IMG/VR virus record: IMGVR_UViG_3300031555_002005
Source of the DNA: a virus
Lineage: Duplodnaviria; Heunggongvirae; Uroviricota; Caudoviricetes
Strand: one strand, 5' to 3'
DNA length: 64,000 nt
The position numbers and the translations under genes are program-made. Each line of letters begins with the position of its first letter. Positions within the stretch are counted from its first letter, which is position 1. This document shows positions 1,208-34,049 of this stretch, piece by piece. The notes under the pieces are model-generated. The model was not told the DNA's origin. It did no database searches and saw only the letters and a list, made by a program, of their open reading frames with translations.

Positions 1208-2467
1208 ATGGATATTCTATTGAAGAAGTTCTTTGAAAAAGAACGATGGGAACAGGCACTTGAAACTGGTGTAGATAAGCACATTGACAAGGGAGAATTG
1301 AGAAAGCTTACATCTCCCGAAGTTAGACTTGCTTTGTATAGTGCAATTGTTAACGACAACTATGAGATTGCCCCGCCACATCAAGTACAGATTCCCAAAG
1401 ATAACGGAGACATGAGAATTGTATATGTCAATGAAAATGTTGACCGTATCTTCTTGTCTATTGTGAACAATCTTTTCTTTGAAATGTTCCCTGAGTTTGT
1501 GCATAAAAGCTGTAAGTCATATCAGTCTGGTATTGGCTGTGGCAAGATTGTACAGGAAGTTTCAAGAGAGATGGTTAAGGTAAACAGCAAGATTGTTGGC
1601 TTTAAGGCAGATTTAACTAAATACTTTGATACTGTTCCTATTAAGTACATAGATGAAATCTTTGACAGAATGGAAAGCAAAGTTGGTAAGTCCAAAATCA
1701 TTGATGTTGTGCGCAAGTATTATCATGCTGATTTATGCTTTGACTACAACGGAGAGCTTATTGAACATTATCAGTCTTTAAAGCAAGGTTGTGCAGTAGC
1801 AAGCTTCTTGGCTGATGCAGTGCTCTATCCAATCGATAAGGAAATCAGTGACATGGATGTTTACTATGTAAGATATTCTGATGATTTGCTTGTAGTTGGT
1901 AGGTGTTACGATGAAGCTTTTCAGATTTTAAAGGCAATGCTGAAAGAGATGGACATGACTTTGAATCCCAAGAAAGTAGAAACTGTTTGCAAAGACAGAT
2001 GGGTTAAATTCCTTGGTTTTAATATCAAAGGAAGCCAGATTACGCTTTCCAAGCAGCGTGTTAAGTCTTTCCAAAAGGAGATTGAAGCACGAACTATTAA
2101 GCAGCGCAAAACTTCTATGGAAAGAGCCATCAACCAAGTGAATAACTATCTCTATAAAGGAGATGGAACTTATTCTTGGGCGACATCTGTGTTACCTATT
2201 ATCAATGTAGAAAAAGACATTGATTCTTTGAATGAATTTGTCATGGATGCAATCAGAGCGTGTGCTACTGGTAAGAAAAAGATTGGAGGTCTGGGAAGTG
2301 TAAACAGCAAAGAAGACTATACAATTCTGCGTGGCACTGGCAAGAATGTGAGCGCAAACAGAGACAAGACTGAAAAGGAAATTGACGGTTTCCTAAGCTT
2401 AAGGTGCATGAGAAACGCTATTCTTACAAACCGAAGTGTATATGAGACTTTGGTAAGAAGTATGTAA
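1208..2467 (+). CDS. reverse transcriptase, stand-alone (class unassigned)
   Basis: 419 aa; RT motifs RIVYV, ADLTKYFDTV, LKQGCAVASF, YVRYSDDLLVV (YxDD), LNPKKVE, FLGF; no En/maturase domain seen. Confidence 0.9.
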   Translation: MDILLKKFFEKERWEQALETGVDKHIDKGELRKLTSPEVRLALYSAIVNDNYEIAPPHQVQIPKDNGDMRIVYVNENVDRIFLSIVNNLFFEMFPEFVHKSCKSYQSGIGCGKIVQEVSREMVKVNSKIVGFKADLTKYFDTVPIKYIDEIFDRMESKVGKSKIIDVVRKYYHADLCFDYNGELIEHYQSLKQGCAVASFLADAVLYPIDKEISDMDVYYVRYSDDLLVVGRCYDEAFQILKAMLKEMDMTLNPKKVETVCKDRWVKFLGFNIKGSQITLSKQRVKSFQKEIEARTIKQRKTSMERAINQVNNYLYKGDGTYSWATSVLPIINVEKDIDSLNEFVMDAIRACATGKKKIGGLGSVNSKEDYTILRGTGKNVSANRDKTEKEIDGFLSLRCMRNAILTNRSVYETLVRSM

Positions 2468-2492
2468 TCAAAGTTGTAATGCAGCAATAAAT

Positions 2493-2622
2493 TGCAAGGC
2501 AACCGAATTCAACTATCTTCCGTCCACCGGCATATCAGAGGAGATACCCAGCTCGCTGTCGCTCCGCTGGAGTATCGCCTCGATCATGCAGGCGAACAGA
2601 AGCTAATATGAAGCAAATAAAG
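2493..2622 (+). ncRNA. RT-associated structured RNA unit U1
   Basis: 5' box TGCAAGG-N7-ATTCAA, 3' box ATATGAAGCAAATAAAG; internal helices cttc/gaag, gaggagatac/gtatcgcctc, ccagc/gctgg. Confidence 0.55.
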
Positions 2623-2670
2623 AAATGCATCGTGGTTGTGAGCAATTTAATTGGCAGTGCGGCCATAGAT

Positions 2671-2793
2671 TGCAAGGTAATTAAATTCAATGACGCAGCA
2701 TACAATTCAGAAATTATGATCTTACTTGCGTGCTATCTCACGCCATAAGATCATAATCTTCTGGCCAATGCTGCATATATGAAGCTATTAAAG
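2671..2793 (+). ncRNA. RT-associated structured RNA unit U2
   Basis: Same boxes (TGCAAGG..ATTCAA / ATATGAAGCTATTAAAG); helices gcagcat/atgctgc, attatgatctta/taagatcataat, gcgtg/cacgc. Confidence 0.6.
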
Positions 2794-2843
2794 TAACGCA
2801 CCAATATTATGAGCAATCTACATTTGGAGTATACCAAAAGAAA

Positions 2844-2967
2844 TGCAAGGCAGTTAAATTCAATACCCTGCAATTGATAAGCCCTAATATGAGGCTCCTT
2901 CAGGGTATCCCCTGAAGCTGCCTCATCTGATGGCTTCCAATCTCAGGGTTACATGAAACATCTAAAG
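2844..2967 (+). ncRNA. RT-associated structured RNA unit U3
   Basis: Boxes TGCAAGG..ATTCAA / ACATGAAACATCTAAAG; helices accctg/cagggt, atgaggc/gcctcat, cttcaggg-TATC-ccctgaag. Confidence 0.6.
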
Positions 2968-3018
2968 TTATATACCGAAACTGTTGAGCATCTTATATTT
3001 TATAAAGGAGGTAAATCA

Positions 3019-3480
3019 ATGACTATCTATGAAGAGCTGATTAAGCGAGTTGAAGAGGGTGAGTCATTTTATATTAACTTTAAGAATCAGGCGCTCAAAA
3101 TTGGCAAGGAATTTATTGTTGCTGATGGTTTTTATGACGATGAACGCATTCTTTATACAACTTCTGAATTGGAAATGTCTGAGATTTTGGCATATATTGA
3201 AACGCTGTATGAAAACTACAAGTACTCTTTACCAAGCGAAAGAAGCGACAGTAGGCGCAGACAGTATTTTAAGGCACTGCCAGTGGACAAGCTTACTGAT
3301 AAGCAAATGGCAACTGGGCAAAGACGTGAGGTTGCAAGAGCGAGGCTTGAAGGTTTCATTCTTTGCATGATTGTTGATGGCTTCTTTGTATGGAACGAAG
3401 AAGAAATGGGCAAGTGGTTTTACCAGTCTAATAGAAATCCTGATTTAGTAATTCTGAGAAACTGGATTGAAAATAATTAA
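3019..3480 (+). CDS. hypothetical protein (153 aa) between RT-associated RNA arrays
   Basis: Start moved from 2953 to ATG 3019 with strong RBS AAAGGAGG; 2953 start would lie inside unit U3. Confidence 0.7.
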   Translation: MTIYEELIKRVEEGESFYINFKNQALKIGKEFIVADGFYDDERILYTTSELEMSEILAYIETLYENYKYSLPSERSDSRRRQYFKALPVDKLTDKQMATGQRREVARARLEGFILCMIVDGFFVWNEEEMGKWFYQSNRNPDLVILRNWIENN

Positions 3481-3500
3481 TAGAAAAGGAGAATGATATT

Positions 3501-4424
3501 ATGATGCACAAAGAAAGAATGGAAAAGTTAAATAAGGCAGGTATAAACACTAGTAAGTATTTCACTGTTGATCTCGACAATGGAACTAAGATTCACCTTA
3601 TCATTGACGAGAATGGACAGCCTGTGGTTGTTAACAACAAGAACGATGAAATTGCTGAGCAGATTATTGCTGATGGCTATGTAAGAAACACCAAGCTTCA
3701 TAGAAGATTCGTTATGGCTCAGATGTTCCATATGCTTAACTATGTATCCTATGATGGAAAAGAGTCTGGCTATAATGCATACCTGAAGAATTACTATGGC
3801 TATCACTATACTCTCACCATGATGCTTGAAGAGGTTAGAGTGCTTGCTAAGCTGGAGGGTAGAGACAAGGAAAGTTTTGATGAGAGAAGCCACTTCTTTA
3901 CCAAGAGGGTTGTCATTGCTGTGCTTGAGGACTATGTGGAAAAGTTGAAGAAATATGTGGACAACCTGCCTGACCGCAAGTGCAAGGGTGTTCCTTATAA
4001 GAGAATTAAGGGTCAGGATATCTTTAATGCAGACCTTGACAAGAAGCTGTATGTTCCTTTGAGAAATAAGCTCAACTATGTTCGCTTTGCATCCAATTAT
4101 ACTGAAATCTATAATGCAATGCAGAAGTTTATGAATGATATGATTAAGCTTCCTTATGACACTCCTAAGAGTAAGATTTGGATTGATGCTTACAAGGGAG
4201 AAGGTGCTTACTATACTCTTAAGAATCTGATTATGTTCCATGAATGCAAGATTCTTGCTCGCTATGTGTTTTATACTACTAGTGAAAGTATGGACATTCT
4301 TAAGCAGAAACTTGATGAATACAAGGGAGAAGGCTGGAGAATGTTTGCTCTCATGAAGAAGGTAATTGAGGATAACAATTTTAACTTCAATGACAGAATG
4401 AAAGAAATATATTCTGACAAGTAA
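3501..4424 (+). CDS. hypothetical protein (307 aa) between RT-associated RNA arrays
   Basis: RBS AAAGGAG upstream; long uninterrupted ORF; no motif recognised. Confidence 0.8.
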   Translation: MMHKERMEKLNKAGINTSKYFTVDLDNGTKIHLIIDENGQPVVVNNKNDEIAEQIIADGYVRNTKLHRRFVMAQMFHMLNYVSYDGKESGYNAYLKNYYGYHYTLTMMLEEVRVLAKLEGRDKESFDERSHFFTKRVVIAVLEDYVEKLKKYVDNLPDRKCKGVPYKRIKGQDIFNADLDKKLYVPLRNKLNYVRFASNYTEIYNAMQKFMNDMIKLPYDTPKSKIWIDAYKGEGAYYTLKNLIMFHECKILARYVFYTTSESMDILKQKLDEYKGEGWRMFALMKKVIEDNNFNFNDRMKEIYSDK

Positions 4425-4453
4425 ACAACTGTCAGCAGATAGATACTGTTTAA

Positions 4454-4579
4454 TGCACAAGGTATTTGTACTTCAATTTACCGTCTATTGATAACATCTT
4501 ACCAGCCAATTGGCGGCATATCTGCCGCCAGTTTCGCTGGTAATATGTCACATATACGGTATATATGAAACAGTTAAAG
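4454..4579 (+). ncRNA. RT-associated structured RNA unit U4
   Basis: Boxes TGCACAAGG..CTTCAA / ATATGAAACAGTTAAAG; helices taccgt/acggta, ttaccagc/gctggtaa, ggcggca-TATC-tgccgcc. Confidence 0.6.
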
Positions 4580-4624
4580 TAATATCTACAGAAATACAGA
4601 GTGCATTTGGTATAAGCGCCAATA

Positions 4625-4749
4625 TACACAAGGGAATTGGTTCAATATAACCTGCGTAGACACCTGGTTACAGGATCCTTTATTCTGGATATCTCCCGAA
4701 ACAGGATCCTTTACCAGGTTAACGCAGGTTAAATATGAGACAGTTAAAG
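4625..4749 (+). ncRNA. RT-associated structured RNA unit U5
   Basis: Boxes TACACAAGG..TTCAA / ATATGAGACAGTTAAAG; helices aacctgcgt/acgcaggtt, acctggt/accaggt, apical gga-TATC-tcc. Confidence 0.6.
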
Positions 4750-4803
4750 GGAGCTTGCGCAATTCATGAGTGTATATAATTTTATAAAAATGGAGGTTAA
4801 AAT

Positions 4804-6340: not shown

Positions 6341-6946
6341 ATGATTATTGAACAGAAACGTTATGAAATTGCAGATGTCTTTGGCCTTTTAGGAGAAGAA
6401 TATCTTTGTAGAAATAATGATGGCGGTCAGTCTGGAAGTGATATTGTTGTAGATGGATTTAATGTACATCCAATTTCTCTTCGATATATGACATTCTATC
6501 AGAAAGGTACAAAGTGTGTTTGTTGTGGAAAAGAAGGAACCCACTTCAAGCTTTGTGGCGATGAAAATACAAATCGAAGACATTTTAATCTGTATGCAGA
6601 AGATGGAACTCTAATGACAAAAGATCATATTTTGCCTAAGAGTAAGGGTGGTCTTAATAGAGTATCTAATATGCAAACAATGTGTACAGACTGTAATAGC
6701 GCAAAAGGCTCTCACTGCCCTGGCTATGAAAAAGAATATATTGTTGGCCGAAATGCAGAGGGAAAAGAAATTGCATTTTCCTCAATTGAAAAGGCAGTTT
6801 ATCACTTGGTAAACAATCATATGAAGAAAAAGAATACCAAAGAGGATTGGGCAAGAAAAGCTATTAATATTACTTTGCAATTACTCAATGTAATTGAAAC
6901 AGGAGAGTGTTATCAAAATAGAATTTGGACAAAGGAAATGAGATAA
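6341..6946 (+). CDS. HNH homing endonuclease
   Basis: KDHILPKSKGG ... CTDCNSAKG (HNH core). Confidence 0.85.
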   Translation: MIIEQKRYEIADVFGLLGEEYLCRNNDGGQSGSDIVVDGFNVHPISLRYMTFYQKGTKCVCCGKEGTHFKLCGDENTNRRHFNLYAEDGTLMTKDHILPKSKGGLNRVSNMQTMCTDCNSAKGSHCPGYEKEYIVGRNAEGKEIAFSSIEKAVYHLVNNHMKKKNTKEDWARKAINITLQLLNVIETGECYQNRIWTKEMR

Positions 6947-8625: not shown

Positions 8626-9044
8626 TGAGCGAAAGAGAGAATTTTATTGTCGTCAATGGTCAAAAATATTATACCGGAACTGTTTTTCTGATTGATTTTC
8701 ATGGTAAGGTACAAGAGGCATCTTTTGTCTGCACTGTTGTCAAGACAAATAGAGTTCGATGTAAACTTGCTAACTCTTACTGGTTTATACATGCTGACGA
8801 TTTTCGCAAAAGAATTGTTGAGATCACAGATAAGGTTGATTCCAGTGTGCACATGCCCGTTACCAAAACAATGAAAGACACTGAGATTGGCAGCCTGTTT
8901 ATTGGCTGGCTGTGGTATATTTTTCTTATGGCAATTAGCACGATTTTTAAAAATGCAATTGGACTGTGGTGTTTTATTTCTTGGGTGTTTTTTACTTGGA
9001 GAGCTAAGAAAATAAAAGAGGAGGGGACTTACATTGAGTGGTAG
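8625..9044 (+). CDS. membrane-anchored hypothetical protein
   Basis: ATG overlaps stop (TAATG), RBS GGAGGA; C-terminal hydrophobic helices. Confidence 0.7.
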   Translation: MSERENFIVVNGQKYYTGTVFLIDFHGKVQEASFVCTVVKTNRVRCKLANSYWFIHADDFRKRIVEITDKVDSSVHMPVTKTMKDTEIGSLFIGWLWYIFLMAISTIFKNAIGLWCFISWVFFTWRAKKIKEEGTYIEW

Positions 9045-10008
9045 ACTTGAAAAAGAAAGACAAATCGAACAGCAGGTCATGAAAAAACTTGACTCTATGC
9101 CTTCTATCTTAACAGACTATTATTATAGTTTAATTGGTGCAGGCAAATCATATAGAACTGCAAAAGTATATATAGAAAATGTAATTCAGTTTGTAAAATT
9201 TACATTTGGAAAAAATATTAAAGAAGACTTTTATTCTAGTGTGAACGCAATCCATATCAATAGATATATTGCTTCTCTGAGAACAAAGACTGTAAAAGGA
9301 AAAACGGAGCGCACATCTGATAGTCACAAAACATTAAATTGGTCTTCTTTAAATTCGTTTTTTCAATTCTTGGTTCCAGATTATATTTCCACAAACCCTG
9401 TGGCAAATACAAAAAGACCCAAAATGAAAGATAATCCAAATGTTACATTCTTGGACACGGAAGAAATGGCAAAAATCTTTAAAAATGTTAAAGAAAAAGC
9501 GAATCCACGAATGTTAAATAGAGATATGTGCCTTTTAAAACTTGGGTTTGCTACGGGCTTACGTATTTCTGCAATAGTACAAATTGATATTGATGATTTA
9601 GATTTAAAACGTAATCAAATCAGAATTACAGAAAAGGGAGATCATGACGATTATGTGATTATAGGAGATAATCTTAAAGCGCAAGTTGAACTGTGGCTAA
9701 AAGACAGAGAGGAATATTTTAGTGATGTAAACAGTAATGCTCTGTTTGTTTCGCAAGAAAAGAATAGACTTAGCGCACGATCTGTTAAGGATTTAATGGA
9801 TAAATATACACTTGGCGCAACTGATAAAAAGGTTACACCTCATGTAATGCGTCACTCTTGTGCGACAAATTTGTATGAAAAAACTGGAGATATTTATCTG
9901 TGTGCAAGACAGTTACATCATAAAAATGTATCTACAACACAGAGATATGCTGAGCTGTCTAAAGAGAAACAGAAAAAGGCGGCGAATATTCTTGATGACA
10001 TGATTTGA
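9034..10008 (+). CDS. int: tyrosine recombinase / phage integrase
   Basis: GLRISAI, HVMRHSCATNLY, TTQRYAE (R..HxxR..Y catalytic set); TTG start after GAGGAGGGG. Confidence 0.88.
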   Translation: MSGRLEKERQIEQQVMKKLDSMPSILTDYYYSLIGAGKSYRTAKVYIENVIQFVKFTFGKNIKEDFYSSVNAIHINRYIASLRTKTVKGKTERTSDSHKTLNWSSLNSFFQFLVPDYISTNPVANTKRPKMKDNPNVTFLDTEEMAKIFKNVKEKANPRMLNRDMCLLKLGFATGLRISAIVQIDIDDLDLKRNQIRITEKGDHDDYVIIGDNLKAQVELWLKDREEYFSDVNSNALFVSQEKNRLSARSVKDLMDKYTLGATDKKVTPHVMRHSCATNLYEKTGDIYLCARQLHHKNVSTTQRYAELSKEKQKKAANILDDMI

Positions 10009-10090: not shown

Positions 10091-11005
10091 ATGTATCAAT
10101 CTGAAATGAAAGAGGGTTTTATAAAAGACTATATGAGATCAAGGGTGGTTGCTCGAACGTCTTTATATAGTTTATTCAGAAAAACAGAACCATTTGAAGA
10201 AGAGAATAAAAAGGATTGCAGTCAGTTCAATCAAGATGAAGCTTTATCTATGTACACAAAATTTAAAGCAAAATCAATTTATGTGCTTCTTAATTATAAT
10301 ACAATTTTAAAAGCTTATTGTGCATGGAGACACTATTACCATAAAGAAAAAGTTACGGACTCATATGACAATACTACTATAGAATTACTGAAACCATGTG
10401 TCCCAGAAGATAGTAATAAGTTTTTATCAAGAGAAGAAATAATAGAAATAGAAGATCAATTATATAATTGGACCGACAAGGCAATTGTAGAGTGTTTATG
10501 GGAAGGTATTTCTGGACCAAGTATGATTGACTTGGTGAATATCAATAGATCTATGGTCGATTTTAAGGAAAAGGAAATGTACTTTTCAGACGGAAGAATA
10601 ATTGAATTAACTGATAGGTTATGTGAGCTTTTAAACAAGACATTTGATGAAATTGAGTATATGTGCTACGGAGAATCATTAAGAGTTAAAAAGCTTGTTG
10701 GAATTGGCAATCTATACAAAGAAAGAGATAATGCGCATGCAACAGATTCAAATGATAAATATTTCAGATGGGTGTATAGGAAAGTACAAAATTTTAGAGA
10801 TCATGTTGGTATCCCCGGACTAACCATGAAAAATATACACATATCTGGTATGTATCATTATTTGTGTCAAGGGATGCAAGAAACTGGGCTTGACCTGAAA
10901 AGCTTCTTGAAATCTCAAGATGGTGCGGAATTGGCTTGTAAATATGGTTTTCATTCAGATAGTTACGTAGATAATTTAACACACCGCTTTAAAGATTTTG
11001 TTTAA
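10091..11005 (+). CDS. hypothetical protein (304 aa), possibly integrase-associated DNA-binding
   Basis: RBS GAAGGGG; function guess only from position next to int. Confidence 0.75.
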   Translation: MYQSEMKEGFIKDYMRSRVVARTSLYSLFRKTEPFEEENKKDCSQFNQDEALSMYTKFKAKSIYVLLNYNTILKAYCAWRHYYHKEKVTDSYDNTTIELLKPCVPEDSNKFLSREEIIEIEDQLYNWTDKAIVECLWEGISGPSMIDLVNINRSMVDFKEKEMYFSDGRIIELTDRLCELLNKTFDEIEYMCYGESLRVKKLVGIGNLYKERDNAHATDSNDKYFRWVYRKVQNFRDHVGIPGLTMKNIHISGMYHYLCQGMQETGLDLKSFLKSQDGAELACKYGFHSDSYVDNLTHRFKDFV

Positions 11006-12071: not shown

Positions 12072-12944
12072 ATGGAGGAAATTAATAATGGCGTTTTAAC
12101 AATACAAAAAATTTCAAATGAAAAACAAAATTGGTGTGTTTATTTACATACAAACAAAATAAATGGGAAGAAATATGTTGGTATCACTGGCCAAAATCCA
12201 GAAGATAGATGGAGAAGAGATGGTAAAGGATACAGAACTCAAAAGTATTTTTGGAGAGCAATTCAGAAATATGGATGGAACAACTTTAAACATGAAGTTG
12301 TTTTATATAACGAAACTTTTAAATACGCATGTGCCGTAGAAAAATGTTTAATAAAGCATTATAAATCTAATGATCCAAGGTATGGTTATAATCTTACTGA
12401 TGGTGGCGAAGGCGTTTCTGGTAGAACTCCATGGAATTATGGAATACCAATGTCTGACGAAATGAAAGAAATAATACGGAAAGCAAATACTGGGAGAAAA
12501 ATATCCGAAGAAACACGTAAAAAATTAATTAATGCAAAAAAGGGTAAGCCTCCCAATAACGCAGGGCGTCCAATGTCAGACGAAACAAAAAGAAAATTGT
12601 CAATGTCGCTTATTGGACGAGTGTTTGATGATGAGACAAAACAAAAAATTAGCAATTCCAAAAAAGGAAAATACACAGGCGTAGATAGCTCTAGACATCA
12701 CCCAATTTATTGCGTTGAATTAAATGAAATTTTTTGGGGTGCAAAGGCTGTGAAAGATAAGTATGGTTTTACCACATGTAATATTGGAGCATGTTGTAGA
12801 GGAGAGCGAAATTATGCCAATAAACATCCAGACACCGGAGAGAAGCTTCATTGGATCTATTGTGATGATGCAATAAAAAATGGATATATTACATCATTTC
12901 AACTTGATAATTACTATAAAGGATTAATGGACAAAGGAGATTAA
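12072..12944 (+). CDS. GIY-YIG homing endonuclease with NUMOD-like repeats
   Basis: WCVYLHTN..KKYVGIT..RW..GYNLTDGGEG; three repeats of M/ISDETKxKL. Confidence 0.85.
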   Translation: MEEINNGVLTIQKISNEKQNWCVYLHTNKINGKKYVGITGQNPEDRWRRDGKGYRTQKYFWRAIQKYGWNNFKHEVVLYNETFKYACAVEKCLIKHYKSNDPRYGYNLTDGGEGVSGRTPWNYGIPMSDEMKEIIRKANTGRKISEETRKKLINAKKGKPPNNAGRPMSDETKRKLSMSLIGRVFDDETKQKISNSKKGKYTGVDSSRHHPIYCVELNEIFWGAKAVKDKYGFTTCNIGACCRGERNYANKHPDTGEKLHWIYCDDAIKNGYITSFQLDNYYKGLMDKGD

Positions 12945-17547: not shown

Positions 17548-18603
17548 TTGGAACAAATCAATAATAATTGGTGTGTTTATATGCACACCAATATCATAAA
17601 TAATAAAAAATATATTGGAATTACGTGCAAGAAGCCAGAACATAGGTGGAATGAAGGCAAAGGATATAAACATAATAGATATTTTTGGAATGCAATTCAA
17701 AAATATGGTTGGGAAAATTTTAAACATGAAATTGTTTCATTTAACCTCTCTCACGATGATGCTTGTAAAATGGAAAAATATTTAATCGCTTATTATAGCT
17801 CGAATAATTCGATATATGGTTATAATCTTACAAGTGGTGGAGATAGTGGGTTTTTACATACTGAAGAAACAAAAGAGAGAATAAGACAAGCTAATAGTGG
17901 TATAAGCAATGCAATGTACGGTATTTCTCCAAAAGAACGAATGGATGAAGATACGTACAAACAATGGCTTTATAAGCAACAGACAAATAAACCACACGGT
18001 GAAGATAATCCACAATATGGTGTATCTCCAAAAGAGAGAATGGATGAAACAACATACCAAGAATGGTTGTACAAACAGAAAAATAACAAGCCAAAAGGGA
18101 AAGACCATCCTATGTATGGAGTGTCGCCACAGGAGCGAATGGACGAAGATACATACAAAAATTGGTTGGAAAAAATGAAAAATCCAGCCAAAAGCATATC
18201 TGTTAAGTGCATTGAAACAGATAAAATATATAAAAGTGCAAGAGAAGCAGAAAGAGAAACAGGAATTGCACACAGTTCAATTGTGAAGTCTTGTATGTCA
18301 GAAGATCATTCGGTAATTGCTGGCGGATTTCATTGGTGTTTGGGCAGCGATAATTTTTCTATGGAGGATCTTGGCTTAGAATATAAAGGTAAGAGGTACA
18401 TTAGGTGCATAGAGACTAATCGTATTTATAAAACAGCCAGAGAAGTTAAGAGAGAAACAGGTTTGGATGACTCATCCATTAACAAATGTTGCAAGGGATA
18501 TTATTTCAAAACAGTTGGTGGCCTTCATTGGGAATATATTTATTTGCTTCCAGAACAATACGAAGAATGGTGCAAAACCAACAACTTAACAACACAAAAT
18601 TAA
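17548..18603 (+). CDS. GIY-YIG homing endonuclease with repeats
   Basis: WCVYMHTN..KKYIGIT..RW..GYNLTSGG; three repeats YGxSPKERMDExTY. Confidence 0.85.
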   Translation: MEQINNNWCVYMHTNIINNKKYIGITCKKPEHRWNEGKGYKHNRYFWNAIQKYGWENFKHEIVSFNLSHDDACKMEKYLIAYYSSNNSIYGYNLTSGGDSGFLHTEETKERIRQANSGISNAMYGISPKERMDEDTYKQWLYKQQTNKPHGEDNPQYGVSPKERMDETTYQEWLYKQKNNKPKGKDHPMYGVSPQERMDEDTYKNWLEKMKNPAKSISVKCIETDKIYKSAREAERETGIAHSSIVKSCMSEDHSVIAGGFHWCLGSDNFSMEDLGLEYKGKRYIRCIETNRIYKTAREVKRETGLDDSSINKCCKGYYFKTVGGLHWEYIYLLPEQYEEWCKTNNLTTQN

Positions 18604-22857: not shown

Positions 22858-22983
22858 GACGGTGTAGCTCAGTTGGAAGAGCAATAGCCTTTGTCAGATG
22901 CAGGCTTGCACTAATTCAGTTCGATTCTGAAGTTTGGCACCATAAGCTATGGGTCGAGAGTTCGAGCCTCTCCACCGTCACCA
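22858..22983 (+). tRNA. interrupted tRNA: Lys(TTT) after removal of 50-nt nested insert (alternative register Gln TTG)
   Basis: acceptor gacggtg/caccgtc, D arm, anticodon stem atagc/gctat enclosing cttt+50 nt+taa, T arm gagag-ttcgagc-ctctc, CCA. Confidence 0.75.
22893..22942 (+). ncRNA. nested mini tRNA-like element (acceptor + T arm + ACCA)
   Basis: gtcagat/gtttggc 7-bp helix (3 G-U), ttcag-ttcgatt-ctgaa T arm, ends ACCA. Confidence 0.6.
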
Positions 22984-23450: not shown

Positions 23451-23604
23451 ATCCCAGTAGCTCAGCTGGATAGAGCAACGGTCTTCGGGGAGTTCGTTAA
23501 AAGGTAAGATACTTTAGGATAAAACCTAAGGAGATTACAGTTCGAGTCTGTTGCTCCCCACCATAAACCGTAGGTCGGGGGTTCGAGTCCCTCCTGGGAT
23601 ACCA
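23451..23604 (+). tRNA. interrupted tRNA: Arg(TCT) after removal of 77-nt nested insert (alternative register Arg TCG)
   Basis: acceptor atcccag/ctgggat, anticodon stem acggt/accgt enclosing cttc+77 nt+taa, T arm ggggg-ttcgagt-ccctc, CCA. Confidence 0.75.
23487..23563 (+). ncRNA. nested full-length tRNA-like element with 6-nt 'anticodon' loop
   Basis: ggggagt/gctcccc acceptor, tttagg-ataaaa-cctaag arm, acag-ttcgagt-ctgt T arm, ends ACCA. Confidence 0.6.
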
Positions 23605-28582: not shown

Positions 28583-28712
28583 GCGGAAGTAGCTCAGCTG
28601 GGAGAGCAATAGTATTTATTTAAAAATGTGTTTAGATTAACACTAACAGCAATTTTTATTTAAAGAAGAAGTTGGGGACTATGGGTCGTAGGTTCGAGCC
28701 CTACCTTCCGCA
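28583..28712 (+). tRNA. tRNA-like gene with permuted ACAGCAA module in anticodon loop (unit D; anticodon unassigned)
   Basis: acceptor gcggaag/cttccgc, D and T arms canonical, stem atagt/actat encloses 64 nt: taaaaa-[gtgtt-tagatt-aacac]-tAACAGCAA-ttttta. Confidence 0.6.
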
Positions 28713-28724
28713 TCAACTAAATAT

Positions 28725-28852
28725 GCCAGAGTAGCTCAGTTGGTAGAGCACGTATATATCAACCAACGTGGTATGAAAATTTCACGCACAGCAATTTTAA
28801 TGATTCTTGCCTTTTAAGCACGTTGTCGTGGGTTCGAGTCCCATCTCTGGCA
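28725..28852 (+). tRNA. tRNA-like gene with ACAGCAA module (unit E; anticodon unassigned)
   Basis: acceptor gccagag/ctctggc, D/T arms canonical; insert has hairpin cgtg-N12-cacg + cACAGCAA (28788..28794); flanked by direct repeat agcacgt. Confidence 0.55.
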
Positions 28853-29353: not shown

Positions 29354-30907
29354 ATGGAATTTATGAGTGCAGTTAGACAGACTCTCAATAATGAGTACAA
29401 TGTGTCTATCACTGAGAACGGCGCAGTTGGTTATAGAACCACTGGCAAGGAGCTGCTTGACCTGAACTTTGCAGTAGCATCTCTTCGTAAGATGACCGAT
29501 GCAGAAGTCGCAAAGAGATTCAAGAAGGCTTTTTGTGAAGATCAGGTTCTCGCAATGAAGTGGCTGTTCTACGCAAGAGACGTTCGTGGTGGTTTGGGTG
29601 AGCGTAGACTGTTCAGAGTTGTTCTGGCAGATCTGGTACAGTCCAATCCTGAAATGGTTATTCCTGTCATGAATCTGATTCCTGAGTATGGTCGCTACGA
29701 TGACCTGTGGTGTCTGTTAGATGACAAGGAAGCAGCTAATGTGATTTATCAGATTGTTGATAATCAGCTGAAGCGTGACTGGGAAAACATGGCTTCAAAG
29801 AAGCCTATTTCTATTCTGGCAAAGTGGATGCCTTCTATCAATGCATCTTCTGCTAAGACCAAGGAATACGGAAAGAAGCTGTGCAAGGCTCTGAAGATGA
29901 CTGAGCGTGAATACCGCAAGGCTCTGAGCAAGCTTCGTGCATATCTGGATGTTGTTGAAGTTAAGATGTCCGATAAGAACTGGTCTGCAATTAAGTATGA
30001 AGCAGTTCCTTCTCGTGCAAATCTGATTTACAACAGCGCATTCCTGAGAAATGACGAAGCAAGACGTAGAGAATATCTTGGCCAGCTTGAAAAGGGCGAG
30101 ACTAAGATTAACGCATCTACTCTGTTCCCTCACGATATTGCTCATAAGTATACTAACAACTCATGGGGTCGTGGTCTAAAGGCAAAGGATGCAACCATTG
30201 AAGCTCTGTGGAAGGCGCTACCTGACACTGTAAATGGCTGTGGTAATACTATTGTTGTTGCTGACGGCTCTGGTAGTATGACTTGCACTGTTGACAATCA
30301 CTCTCGTGTTACTGCACTTGAAGTTGCAAACGCACTGGCAATTTACTTTGCTGAGCACTCTTCTGGTCAGTTCAAGGATAAGTACATTACTTTCTCTGAA
30401 AGACCTCAGTTTGTTGACTTCAGCAATTGTAAGACTCTGCATGACAAGCTACACACTGCACTAATGCATAATGAAGTTGCAAATACTAACATCGAAAAGG
30501 TGTTTGATTTGATTCTGACTTCTGCGGTCAATAACCATATGCATCAGGAAGATCTTCCTCAGAACATCCTGATCATCTCTGATATGGAGTTTGATAGCTG
30601 TGCAACTTCTGGCAATGTTGATCGTTGGAGCTACCGTAACAGACCTACTCAGAAGCTATTCGATGTTATCGCTCAGAAGTACGCAAGAGCAGGTTACAAG
30701 ATGCCTCGTCTGGTATTCTGGAATGTAAACTCTCGCACTGGTACTATTCCTGTAAAGGAAAATGACCTTGGTGTGGCACTGGTCAGCGGTTTCTCTGTAA
30801 ACGTTGCCAAGATGGTCATGAGTGGCAAGACTGATCCTTTCGAGTGTCTGCTTGAAACTCTGAACTCTGAGAGATATGCTCCTGTTGAGGAAGCTTTAAA
30901 TCAGTAA
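29354..30907 (+). CDS. DUF2828 / TROVE(Ro60)-like protein with C-terminal vWA domain
   Basis: N-terminal ITENGAVGYRTTGKELLDLNF signature as I recall for DUF2828; MIDAS-like VVADGSGSM; strong RBS AGGAGG. Confidence 0.75.
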   Translation: MEFMSAVRQTLNNEYNVSITENGAVGYRTTGKELLDLNFAVASLRKMTDAEVAKRFKKAFCEDQVLAMKWLFYARDVRGGLGERRLFRVVLADLVQSNPEMVIPVMNLIPEYGRYDDLWCLLDDKEAANVIYQIVDNQLKRDWENMASKKPISILAKWMPSINASSAKTKEYGKKLCKALKMTEREYRKALSKLRAYLDVVEVKMSDKNWSAIKYEAVPSRANLIYNSAFLRNDEARRREYLGQLEKGETKINASTLFPHDIAHKYTNNSWGRGLKAKDATIEALWKALPDTVNGCGNTIVVADGSGSMTCTVDNHSRVTALEVANALAIYFAEHSSGQFKDKYITFSERPQFVDFSNCKTLHDKLHTALMHNEVANTNIEKVFDLILTSAVNNHMHQEDLPQNILIISDMEFDSCATSGNVDRWSYRNRPTQKLFDVIAQKYARAGYKMPRLVFWNVNSRTGTIPVKENDLGVALVSGFSVNVAKMVMSGKTDPFECLLETLNSERYAPVEEALNQ

Positions 30908-31041: not shown

Positions 31042-31165
31042 AGACATTAACAGCAAACAATAATTACTTGGTTGCGAGGTTAGCTTAGCTGGTCTAAAGC
31101 AATAGATGTGAAAATCTATGATCACTGGTTCGAACCCAGTACCTTGTGTTTAAGTGATAATGTCT
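31042..31165 (+). ncRNA. ACAGCAA-module RNA unit J carrying a tRNA-like domain
   Basis: outer agacatt/aatgtct, bulge aACAGCAA (31049..31056), inner ttactt/aagtga; cargo 31074..31148 cloverleaf-like with 6/8-nt 'anticodon' loop. Confidence 0.6.
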
Positions 31166-33957: not shown

Positions 33958-34049
33958 CCAGCAATGGCGAAAATGGTAAACGCAGTCCGCAGTAGGATTG
34001 CCTGATAGCGCAGTCGGGCATGATAGTTCAAGTCTATCTTGCTGGGCCA
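33958..34049 (+). ncRNA. non-canonical tRNA-like RNA
   Basis: acceptor ccagcaa/ttgctgg+G+CCA, D arm gcg-N11-cgc, T arm gatag-ttcaagt-ctatc; middle is 7-bp hairpin tgcctga/tcgggca with 8-nt loop; direct repeat cgcagtc. Confidence 0.45.

Follow-up and report, generated by a model that had tools for sequence, protein, structure and literature searches.

Among the reverse transcriptases (RTs) of the UG/Abi superfamily, UG27 is one of the few that are encoded by phages instead of being deployed against them, and it is very common in human-gut phages. Mestre et al. (2022, Nucleic Acids Research, PMC9226505) reported a triad of an RT, a protein of cluster 346 and a protein of cluster 337 in gut phages under this name. 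In the part of that report used here, 1,447 dereplicated predicted viral genomes, the majority of them from the human gut, are counted as having the complete system, which is described as not enriched in defence islands; a putative noncoding RNA (ncRNA) "with three long stem-loops" is placed in the intergenic region between the RT gene and the cluster 346 gene. The same source places a single ncRNA upstream of the RT in UG2 and UG28 and at the 3' end of the system in UG3+UG8. No published function for UG27 was found in the literature searched. Here, we analyse a UG27 locus in a 64,000-nt stretch of Caudoviricetes DNA (IMG/VR record IMGVR_UViG_3300031555_002005), which we refer to as the window. 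We found that the locus is a complete phage-borne system, consisting of a class 2 UG/Abi RT, the accessory proteins RTas346 and RTas337, and a modular ncRNA. This ncRNA is a tandem array of ~172-nt modules and not a single molecule with three hairpins, and the hairpin structure of the modules is conserved far beyond chance. Moreover, the hairpin bodies are under constraint to pair on either strand, which would be expected if their complement also has to fold. Based on these sequence patterns, we suggest that the modules may be RT-bound templates that would give hairpin cDNAs.

A complete UG27 system in a phage genome

Using PADLOC profiles, we found that the RT matched RT_UG27 over residues 2 to 419 of 419 with an E-value of 2.6e-206, while the runner-up RT group, RT_UG26, reached 1.8e-38; weaker matches included Drt9 (7.4e-25) and UG17, and the best retron RT model gave 2.9e-10. 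RVT_1 was recognised by Pfam (9.4e-22), and the YSDD catalytic motif occupies residues 223-226 (nt 1874-1885). The two genes downstream of the RT, on the same strand, matched the RTas346 and RTas337 families over their full length. Altogether, the four features that define UG27 were all found, i.e., the RT profile, the 346 and 337 neighbours, the phage genome, and an ncRNA of long stem-loops between the RT and 346. In the initial annotation, the RT was an orphan without partners, the two following open reading frames (ORFs) had no recognisable motifs, and nothing of this kind had been described for phage RTs. Because the RT, RTas346, and RTas337 match the UG27 models and the system, including its ncRNA, in the gut phages of Mestre et al. 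(2022), the RT is not an orphan, both ORFs belong to catalogued families, and the phage-RT system had already been described; what stands of these claims is that no fold was recognised for the two accessory proteins.

Compared with UG27 in the part of Mestre et al. (2022) used here, the locus shows no difference in kind. The RT and both accessory families match over their full length, the gene order and the phage genome agree, and a structured RNA occupies the region between the RT and 346, where the three units at 2492-2967 are the three-stem-loop ncRNA of that report. What we add to that text is that the RNA consists of tandem copies of one module, numbering 2 to 8, that a second array with its own classes D and E follows RTas337, and that each module has a small upstream hairpin (SL0) and a body that is Watson-Crick only. 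As a discovery, this adds little, since the UG27 family had been published together with its hairpin ncRNA in 2022; the tandem modules, the second array, SL0, the Watson-Crick-only bodies, and their fast turnover may be partly new relative to the portion of the paper considered. The locus is, however, a clean and complete example in which the three genes are intact and the modules number 3 + 2.

Several other RT systems share features with this locus. DRT2 (UG2), DRT9 (UG28), and DRT3 (UG3+UG8) belong to the same superfamily and rely on a structured ncRNA beside the RT. They are host defence systems with concatemeric or homopolymeric cDNA products, whereas the hairpins described here are phage-borne, tandem, multi-copy, and diverse in sequence. 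An assignment to the DRT2/DRT9 type was rejected on the basis of the profile scores (Drt9 at 7.4e-25 against UG27 at 2.6e-206) and because the RNA forms multi-copy arrays downstream of the RT. Diversity-generating retroelements likewise combine a phage RT of similar size with a repeated sequence of ~100-130 nt nearby. In contrast to these elements, the repeats here are intergenic hairpins, Avd is lacking, and there is no adenine-specific mismatch pattern; this class was rejected because no unit has a copy in a target gene and the bodies match nothing else in the window by blastn-short. Finally, the closest solved RT by sequence in the PDB is the group II RT GsI-IIC. A group II intron was rejected because this match reaches only 9.5e-15, Rfam gives no group II match, and Pfam finds no maturase or endonuclease domain in the RT, where RVT_1 is accompanied only by an overlapping RdRP_1 match and a sub-threshold DUF5442 match.

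The accessory proteins gave no further assignment. Pfam and PHROGs searches of RTas346 and RTas337 returned no significant match, and a profile-profile comparison of the two found no relationship between them. RTas337, for which there are 1760 homologues, was modelled by AlphaFold2 with a predicted local distance difference test (pLDDT) score of 82.6 and RTas346 with a score of 73.3. The structural matches of the RTas337 model were generic helical ones, and Foldseek against viral structures returned nothing at E up to 0.001. For RTas346, the correct start of the ORF is 3019, the longer version from 2953 beginning within the 3' box of the third unit.

The modules, their hairpins, and their linkage to the RT

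Two boxes bracket each unit, CAAGG-N7-UUCAA on the 5' side and AUGARRC-N3-UAAAG on the 3' side. A strict regular expression for both boxes found exactly five units (U1 to U5) in the 64-kb window. A covariance model, R1, seeded from three close orthologues, also gave five matches, all on the + strand, and otherwise only a weak reverse-strand echo of U2. These are the five units of the initial annotation, and its description of them holds in most respects. The spacers measure 48, 50, and 45 nt, as it had claimed, and are partly conserved in sequence; the stems that it quoted, e.g., attatgatctta/taagatcataat, are present in the folds, and when each unit is folded as a single hairpin, 0 of 200 shuffles equal the native energy (z -3.1 to -8.1). 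Likewise, four of the five apical loops read UAUC (U2-U5), with the variant CUGUC in U1, the most divergent of the five. What it had missed is SL0, the small hairpin ahead of each unit. A module therefore reads, in order, SL0, an unpaired CAAGG box, a 45-bp five-helix hairpin, and an unpaired AUGARRC-N3-UAAAG box; within the hairpin, helix P1 (UUCA/UGAA) is followed by P2-P5 and a YUAUC apical loop.

The conservation of the hairpin was assessed in 29 related loci from IMG/VR, collected via the RT (51-92% identity), and 7 further loci from genome assemblies. All strict units (n = 99, 66 distinct) have the same P1-P5 shape, and their apical loop is usually YUAUCN. With R1, 137 matches were aligned, giving 96 distinct rows. 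In these rows, 90.1% of the paired cells hold standard pairs, compared with 54.0% in shuffles and 28-43% when the partners are slid by 1-3 columns; these counts are somewhat inflated because the alignment was fitted to the model structure, which speaks against taking them at face value, yet they exceed both controls by a very wide margin. For covariation, the score is 0.746, compared with 0.16 for shuffles and <0.08 for slid partners, and 31 of the 33 pairs show compensatory changes. Thus, the earlier picture of conserved ends with divergent but paired interiors is borne out. MAFFT alignment followed by RNAalifold, applied to the 66 units or to one class at a time, captured only parts of the hairpin, because the bodies are too divergent to be aligned by sequence.

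The composition of the pairs argues that the bodies are constrained on both strands, since G:U pairs are nearly absent from P2-P5. They occupy 21 of about 2,110 cells (1.1%) and are rarer there than A:C mismatches (48), while in P1 they make up 5.5%. At the same time, evolution is faster in the bodies than in the genes. In a comparison of the window with a relative (L001), the best-matching bodies are 50-73% identical, compared with 86% nucleotide identity in the RT gene, and the first array has three copies in the window and five in L001. The body of U5 is 87% identical to one in another relative (L002:8712-8835). When the five bodies were compared with the window by blastn-short, only self matches and chance matches of 11-15 nt were obtained, and Rfam gave no family for the units, either at the gathering threshold or at E up to 5.

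SL0 has a stem of 4-6 bp that ends 6-7 nt ahead of CAAGG. A stem of at least 4 bp is present in 64 of 80 distinct upstream segments, compared with ~29 of 80 shuffled ones, and these stems comprise 46 different sequences; in the fixed register of the first array, 66.8% of the positions pair, compared with 48% for shuffles. The loop depends on the class of the module and reads AGYRYA in the first array, AUAGAUA in the first unit of the second array, and AUAAGC in its last unit. In addition, the linker GAG(C/T)AAT (2640-2646 and 2811-2817 in the window) can pair with AUU(G/A)C just ahead of AAGG, with a compensatory switch from C/T to G/A between phages, and around SL0 of module 1 an outer helix GTAAT/ATTGC is possible. 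Such pairing would enclose SL0 in a longer hairpin. This outer helix (GYAAU/AUURC) occurs in 26 of 80 segments, compared with 9.5 in shuffles, and we regard it tentatively as partly supported. The 5' and 3' tails of the aligned units do not covary with each other (mutual information at most 0.2), and the two boxes, which do not pair with one another, are probably single-stranded recognition sites.

The order RT-array-346-337-array is kept in every locus that is long enough, down to 55% RT identity. The first array, between the RT and 346, has 2-8 units elsewhere and 3 here, and the second array, after 337, has 2-3 units elsewhere and 2 here; counts for the first plus the second array are, e.g., 6+2 in L012, 2+3 in L014, and 8+2 in L044. 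In the locus with 55% RT identity, about seven long hairpins stand in tandem with diverged boxes. The module classes, taken from a listing of the units across loci after a crude regular-expression classification failed, keep their positions across phages, including those with 57% RT identity: class C lies beside 346, D comes first after 337, and E comes last. In one relative (L042:5719-10199), the RT gene (67% identical) and RTas346 lie 4.5 kb apart, compared with 0.4-1.5 kb elsewhere; R1 finds only two units in this gap, both at its far end (9671 and 10015), and inserted genes or diverged units must account for the rest.

The units are exclusively linked to UG27 in this sample. An RT-independent scan of IMG/VR with the DNA pattern of the units matched 14 viral contigs, of which 12 were known from the RT search and 2 were additional, and all 14 carry the RT, 346, and 337. 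Moreover, the strong covariance-model matches in the window and in the related loci all lie on the RT strand. The possibility that the units are generic elements of RT-less phages had been raised with the first annotation; no such phage was among the contigs, and its proposal of a family of RT-associated structured ncRNAs is well supported by this linkage, the strandedness, and the covariation. These data also bear on the idea that the elements act as DNA, forming hairpin or cruciform sites that serve replication, recombination, or packaging and lie in the RT locus by chance. Bodies restricted to Watson-Crick pairs, with G:U no commoner than A:C, are what a DNA-level palindrome would show, and the arrays gain and lose copies quickly. 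However, the orientation strictly follows the RT strand, the flanking boxes are asymmetric, conserved, and unpaired, P1 tolerates G:U, and the elements occur within UG27 loci only. We therefore consider a role as DNA elements highly improbable.

A scan of the spacers for sigma-70 promoters and intrinsic terminators found no convincing site, and the simplest reading of the sequence is that the array would be co-transcribed with the operon. The same finding fits a model in which the hairpins act in cis on RNA processing or expression, tuning the amounts of RTas346 and RTas337 as RNase III-type cleavage sites, stabilisers, or attenuators, and are not substrates of the RT. The units occupy intergenic regions of a co-directional operon, and long, nearly perfect duplexes are typical RNase III substrates. 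By contrast, 2 to 8 copies are more than regulation would need, and the second array follows the last gene of the system. Furthermore, across RTs of 55-92% identity, conservation extends to the single-stranded boxes, the apical YUAUC loop, and the SL0 loops specific to each class, and the units are seen with UG27 only. On balance, regulation in cis as the sole function appears quite unlikely to us. The features of the locus are listed in Table 1.

Table 1. Genes and RNA elements of the UG27 locus, with positions in the window and the supporting evidence
Feature	Position	Strand	Support
UG27-class RT, 419 aa	1208..2467	+	PADLOC RT_UG27, Pfam RVT_1
SL0 of module 1 (GTTGT / loop AATGCA / GCAAT), right behind the RT stop codon	2473..2488	+	
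U1 (5' box, long hairpin, 3' box)	2492..2622	+	R1 27.9 bits, E 0.0025; fold -39.4 kcal/mol, z -3.05
SL0 of module 2 (TGGC / AGTGCG / GCCA)	2652..2665	+	
U2, class B (P2 GCAGC, P3 CAGA/TCTGG)	2670..2793	+	R1 74.6 bits; z -5.27
SL0 of module 3 (TTTGG / AGTATA / CCAAA)	2823..2838	+	
U3, class C, invariably the final unit ahead of RTas346	2843..2967	+	R1 59.7 bits; z -5.29
RTas346 accessory protein, 153 aa, no fold recognised	3019..3480	+	PADLOC RTas346 2.2e-55
RTas337 accessory protein, 307 aa, largely helical, no fold recognised	3501..4424	+	PADLOC RTas337 3.9e-113
SL0 of module 4 (AGCAG / ATAGATA / CTGTT), class D-specific loop	4434..4450	+	
U4, class D, always first after RTas337	4455..4579	+	R1 75.0 bits; z -7.17
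SL0 of module 5 (TTGGT / ATAAGC / GCCAA), class E-specific loop	4607..4622	+	
U5, class E, always last in the locus	4626..4749	+	R1 43.3 bits; z -8.12

A proposed role as templates for hairpin DNAs

We suggest that the operon transcript would supply the modules and that the RT, with or without RTas346 and RTas337, would recognise the conserved boxes and loops and reverse-transcribe the variable hairpin body. Given the almost exclusive use of Watson-Crick pairs in the body, the resulting cDNA would be expected to fold into the same hairpin as the RNA body. A body that has to fold both as RNA and as cDNA must stay Watson-Crick, since any G:U pair would be copied into a C:A mismatch. In this way, the phage may make a small repertoire of hairpin single-stranded DNAs (ssDNAs). 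Taken jointly, the reading that the locus is a UG27 system with tandem hairpin modules, that the RT copies these modules into hairpin cDNA, and that a phage-side role is the likelier one has, in our estimate, a probability of roughly 80%.

Several points weigh against this reading, in addition to the inflation of the pairing counts mentioned above. The near absence of G:U from the bodies is the sole new evidence for a template role, and it could also be explained by a protein that reads perfect duplex RNA, by a function as a DNA hairpin, or by gene conversion from arm to arm. No priming feature was found in the units, which have no a1/a2-type duplex and whose tails do not covary. Neither a fold nor a domain clue came from the searches with RTas346 and RTas337, and in the most distant loci (L049, RT 51%) the units are not clearly detectable.

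Retrons provide a partial functional parallel. As in retrons, the RT adjoins an ncRNA made of a small stem-loop and a long hairpin that can fold as RNA and as cDNA, and the likely product would be a hairpin ssDNA. The differences are that the RT here lies outside the retron clade, that there is no a1/a2 duplex, Rfam match, or effector, that a locus holds 5-10 different units rather than one, and that UG27 is phage-borne and not enriched in defence islands. Membership in the retrons, at which the initial annotation had hinted alongside a DRT-like ncRNA, was rejected because the RT belongs to the wrong clade, a terminal a1/a2 duplex is lacking, and Rfam gives no match. A stricter version of the parallel is that the modules are true retron-like msr/msd elements, in which a conserved G of the CAAGG box would prime synthesis through its 2'-OH and yield branched multicopy single-stranded DNA (msDNA), one species per unit. 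The layout is indeed msr-then-msd-like, with a small stem-loop, conserved G residues, and a long hairpin that is Watson-Crick on both strands, and a "retron-type" RT is the second-best PDB sequence match (7.7e-13). However, the RT matches UG27 at 2.6e-206 and the retron RT model only at 2.9e-10, no Rfam family appears even at E up to 5, and there is neither an a1/a2 inverted repeat around the units nor covariation between their tails. In addition, the conserved GG is placed outside P1, the closing helix, and not within a terminal duplex, and no retron effector gene is present. Branched msDNA from each unit thus seems unlikely.

A further possibility is that the hairpin RNAs work as RNA, e.g., as decoys, sponges, or scaffolds for proteins of the host or the phage, and that the RT polymerises without copying them. 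Its synthesis would then be untemplated or protein-primed, in the manner of AbiK or DRT4, or would use a short template like that of DRT9. In several UG/Abi relatives (DRT9, DRT4, and AbiK), the ncRNA serves as a scaffold or only a few of its nucleotides are copied, and Drt9 is among the better PADLOC matches of the RT (7.4e-25). On the other hand, the units contain no homopolymer or short-repeat tract that could serve as such a template, and the pairing constraint on both strands is left unexplained if the body is never copied. We consider this alternative improbable and favour the copying of the bodies into hairpin cDNA.

As to what the system does downstream, host defence is less likely than a role on the phage side, for example in counter-defence or DNA metabolism. 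We further speculate that one RT makes 5-10 different hairpin ssDNAs from a fast-evolving, copy-variable array, that D and E, as two ancient classes, have roles that set them apart from the first array, and that the DNAs act on the host, e.g., as decoys or inhibitors of defence or repair proteins. This would be a multi-product, phage-side counterpart of retrons, but the extension is doubtful. The anatomy of the locus provides constructs for experiments, namely the module boundaries, the boxes and loops, a Watson-Crick-only body, and two arrays with distinct classes.

Genome context and other features of the window

The window is part of a large phage genome with 36.8% G+C and strong Shine-Dalgarno sites, and it carries an array of 22 tRNAs, two integrases, and homing endonucleases of the HNH and GIY-YIG types. 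The relatives lie on IMG/VR contigs of 100-170 kb and in gut metagenome bins labelled Faecalimonas, Prevotella, Eubacteriales, and Bacilli, bin labels being weak evidence of the host; one relative lies on a high-coverage contig of Heminiphilus faecis AM35. A megablast search of the locus against 50,697 phage records gave no match.

Four tRNA genes (22858-22980, 23451-23601, 28583-28712, and 28725-28852; + strand) have apparent inserts of 50-80 nt in the anticodon loop, which are too short for a group I intron. The inserts measure 53 and 80 nt in the first two genes and are deduced from the gene lengths (130 and 128 nt) in the other two. All four genes match the Rfam tRNA model at 48-56 bits and have no clean ARAGORN call; within 23451-23601, ARAGORN gives only "tRNA-???". 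Such calls, with the two-base anticodons aa, ga, and ag, are found at 23487-23563, 31073-31149, and 33958-34049 (+), and these three genes may have odd anticodon loops or be miscalls of intron-bearing tRNAs. In the middle of the tRNA array, 29354-30907 (+) encodes a 517-aa protein with DUF2828 (2.5e-35) and DUF7788 (3.4e-45).

A few kilobases downstream of the RT module, two adjacent recombinase-like genes (+) encode a Phage_integrase protein (9034-10008) and a protein with an MrpR N-terminal core-binding domain (10091-11005). The early region also contains three genes of the homing-endonuclease type (6341-6946, 12072-12944, and 17548-18603; +), of which one is HNH and two are GIY-YIG/NUMOD3.

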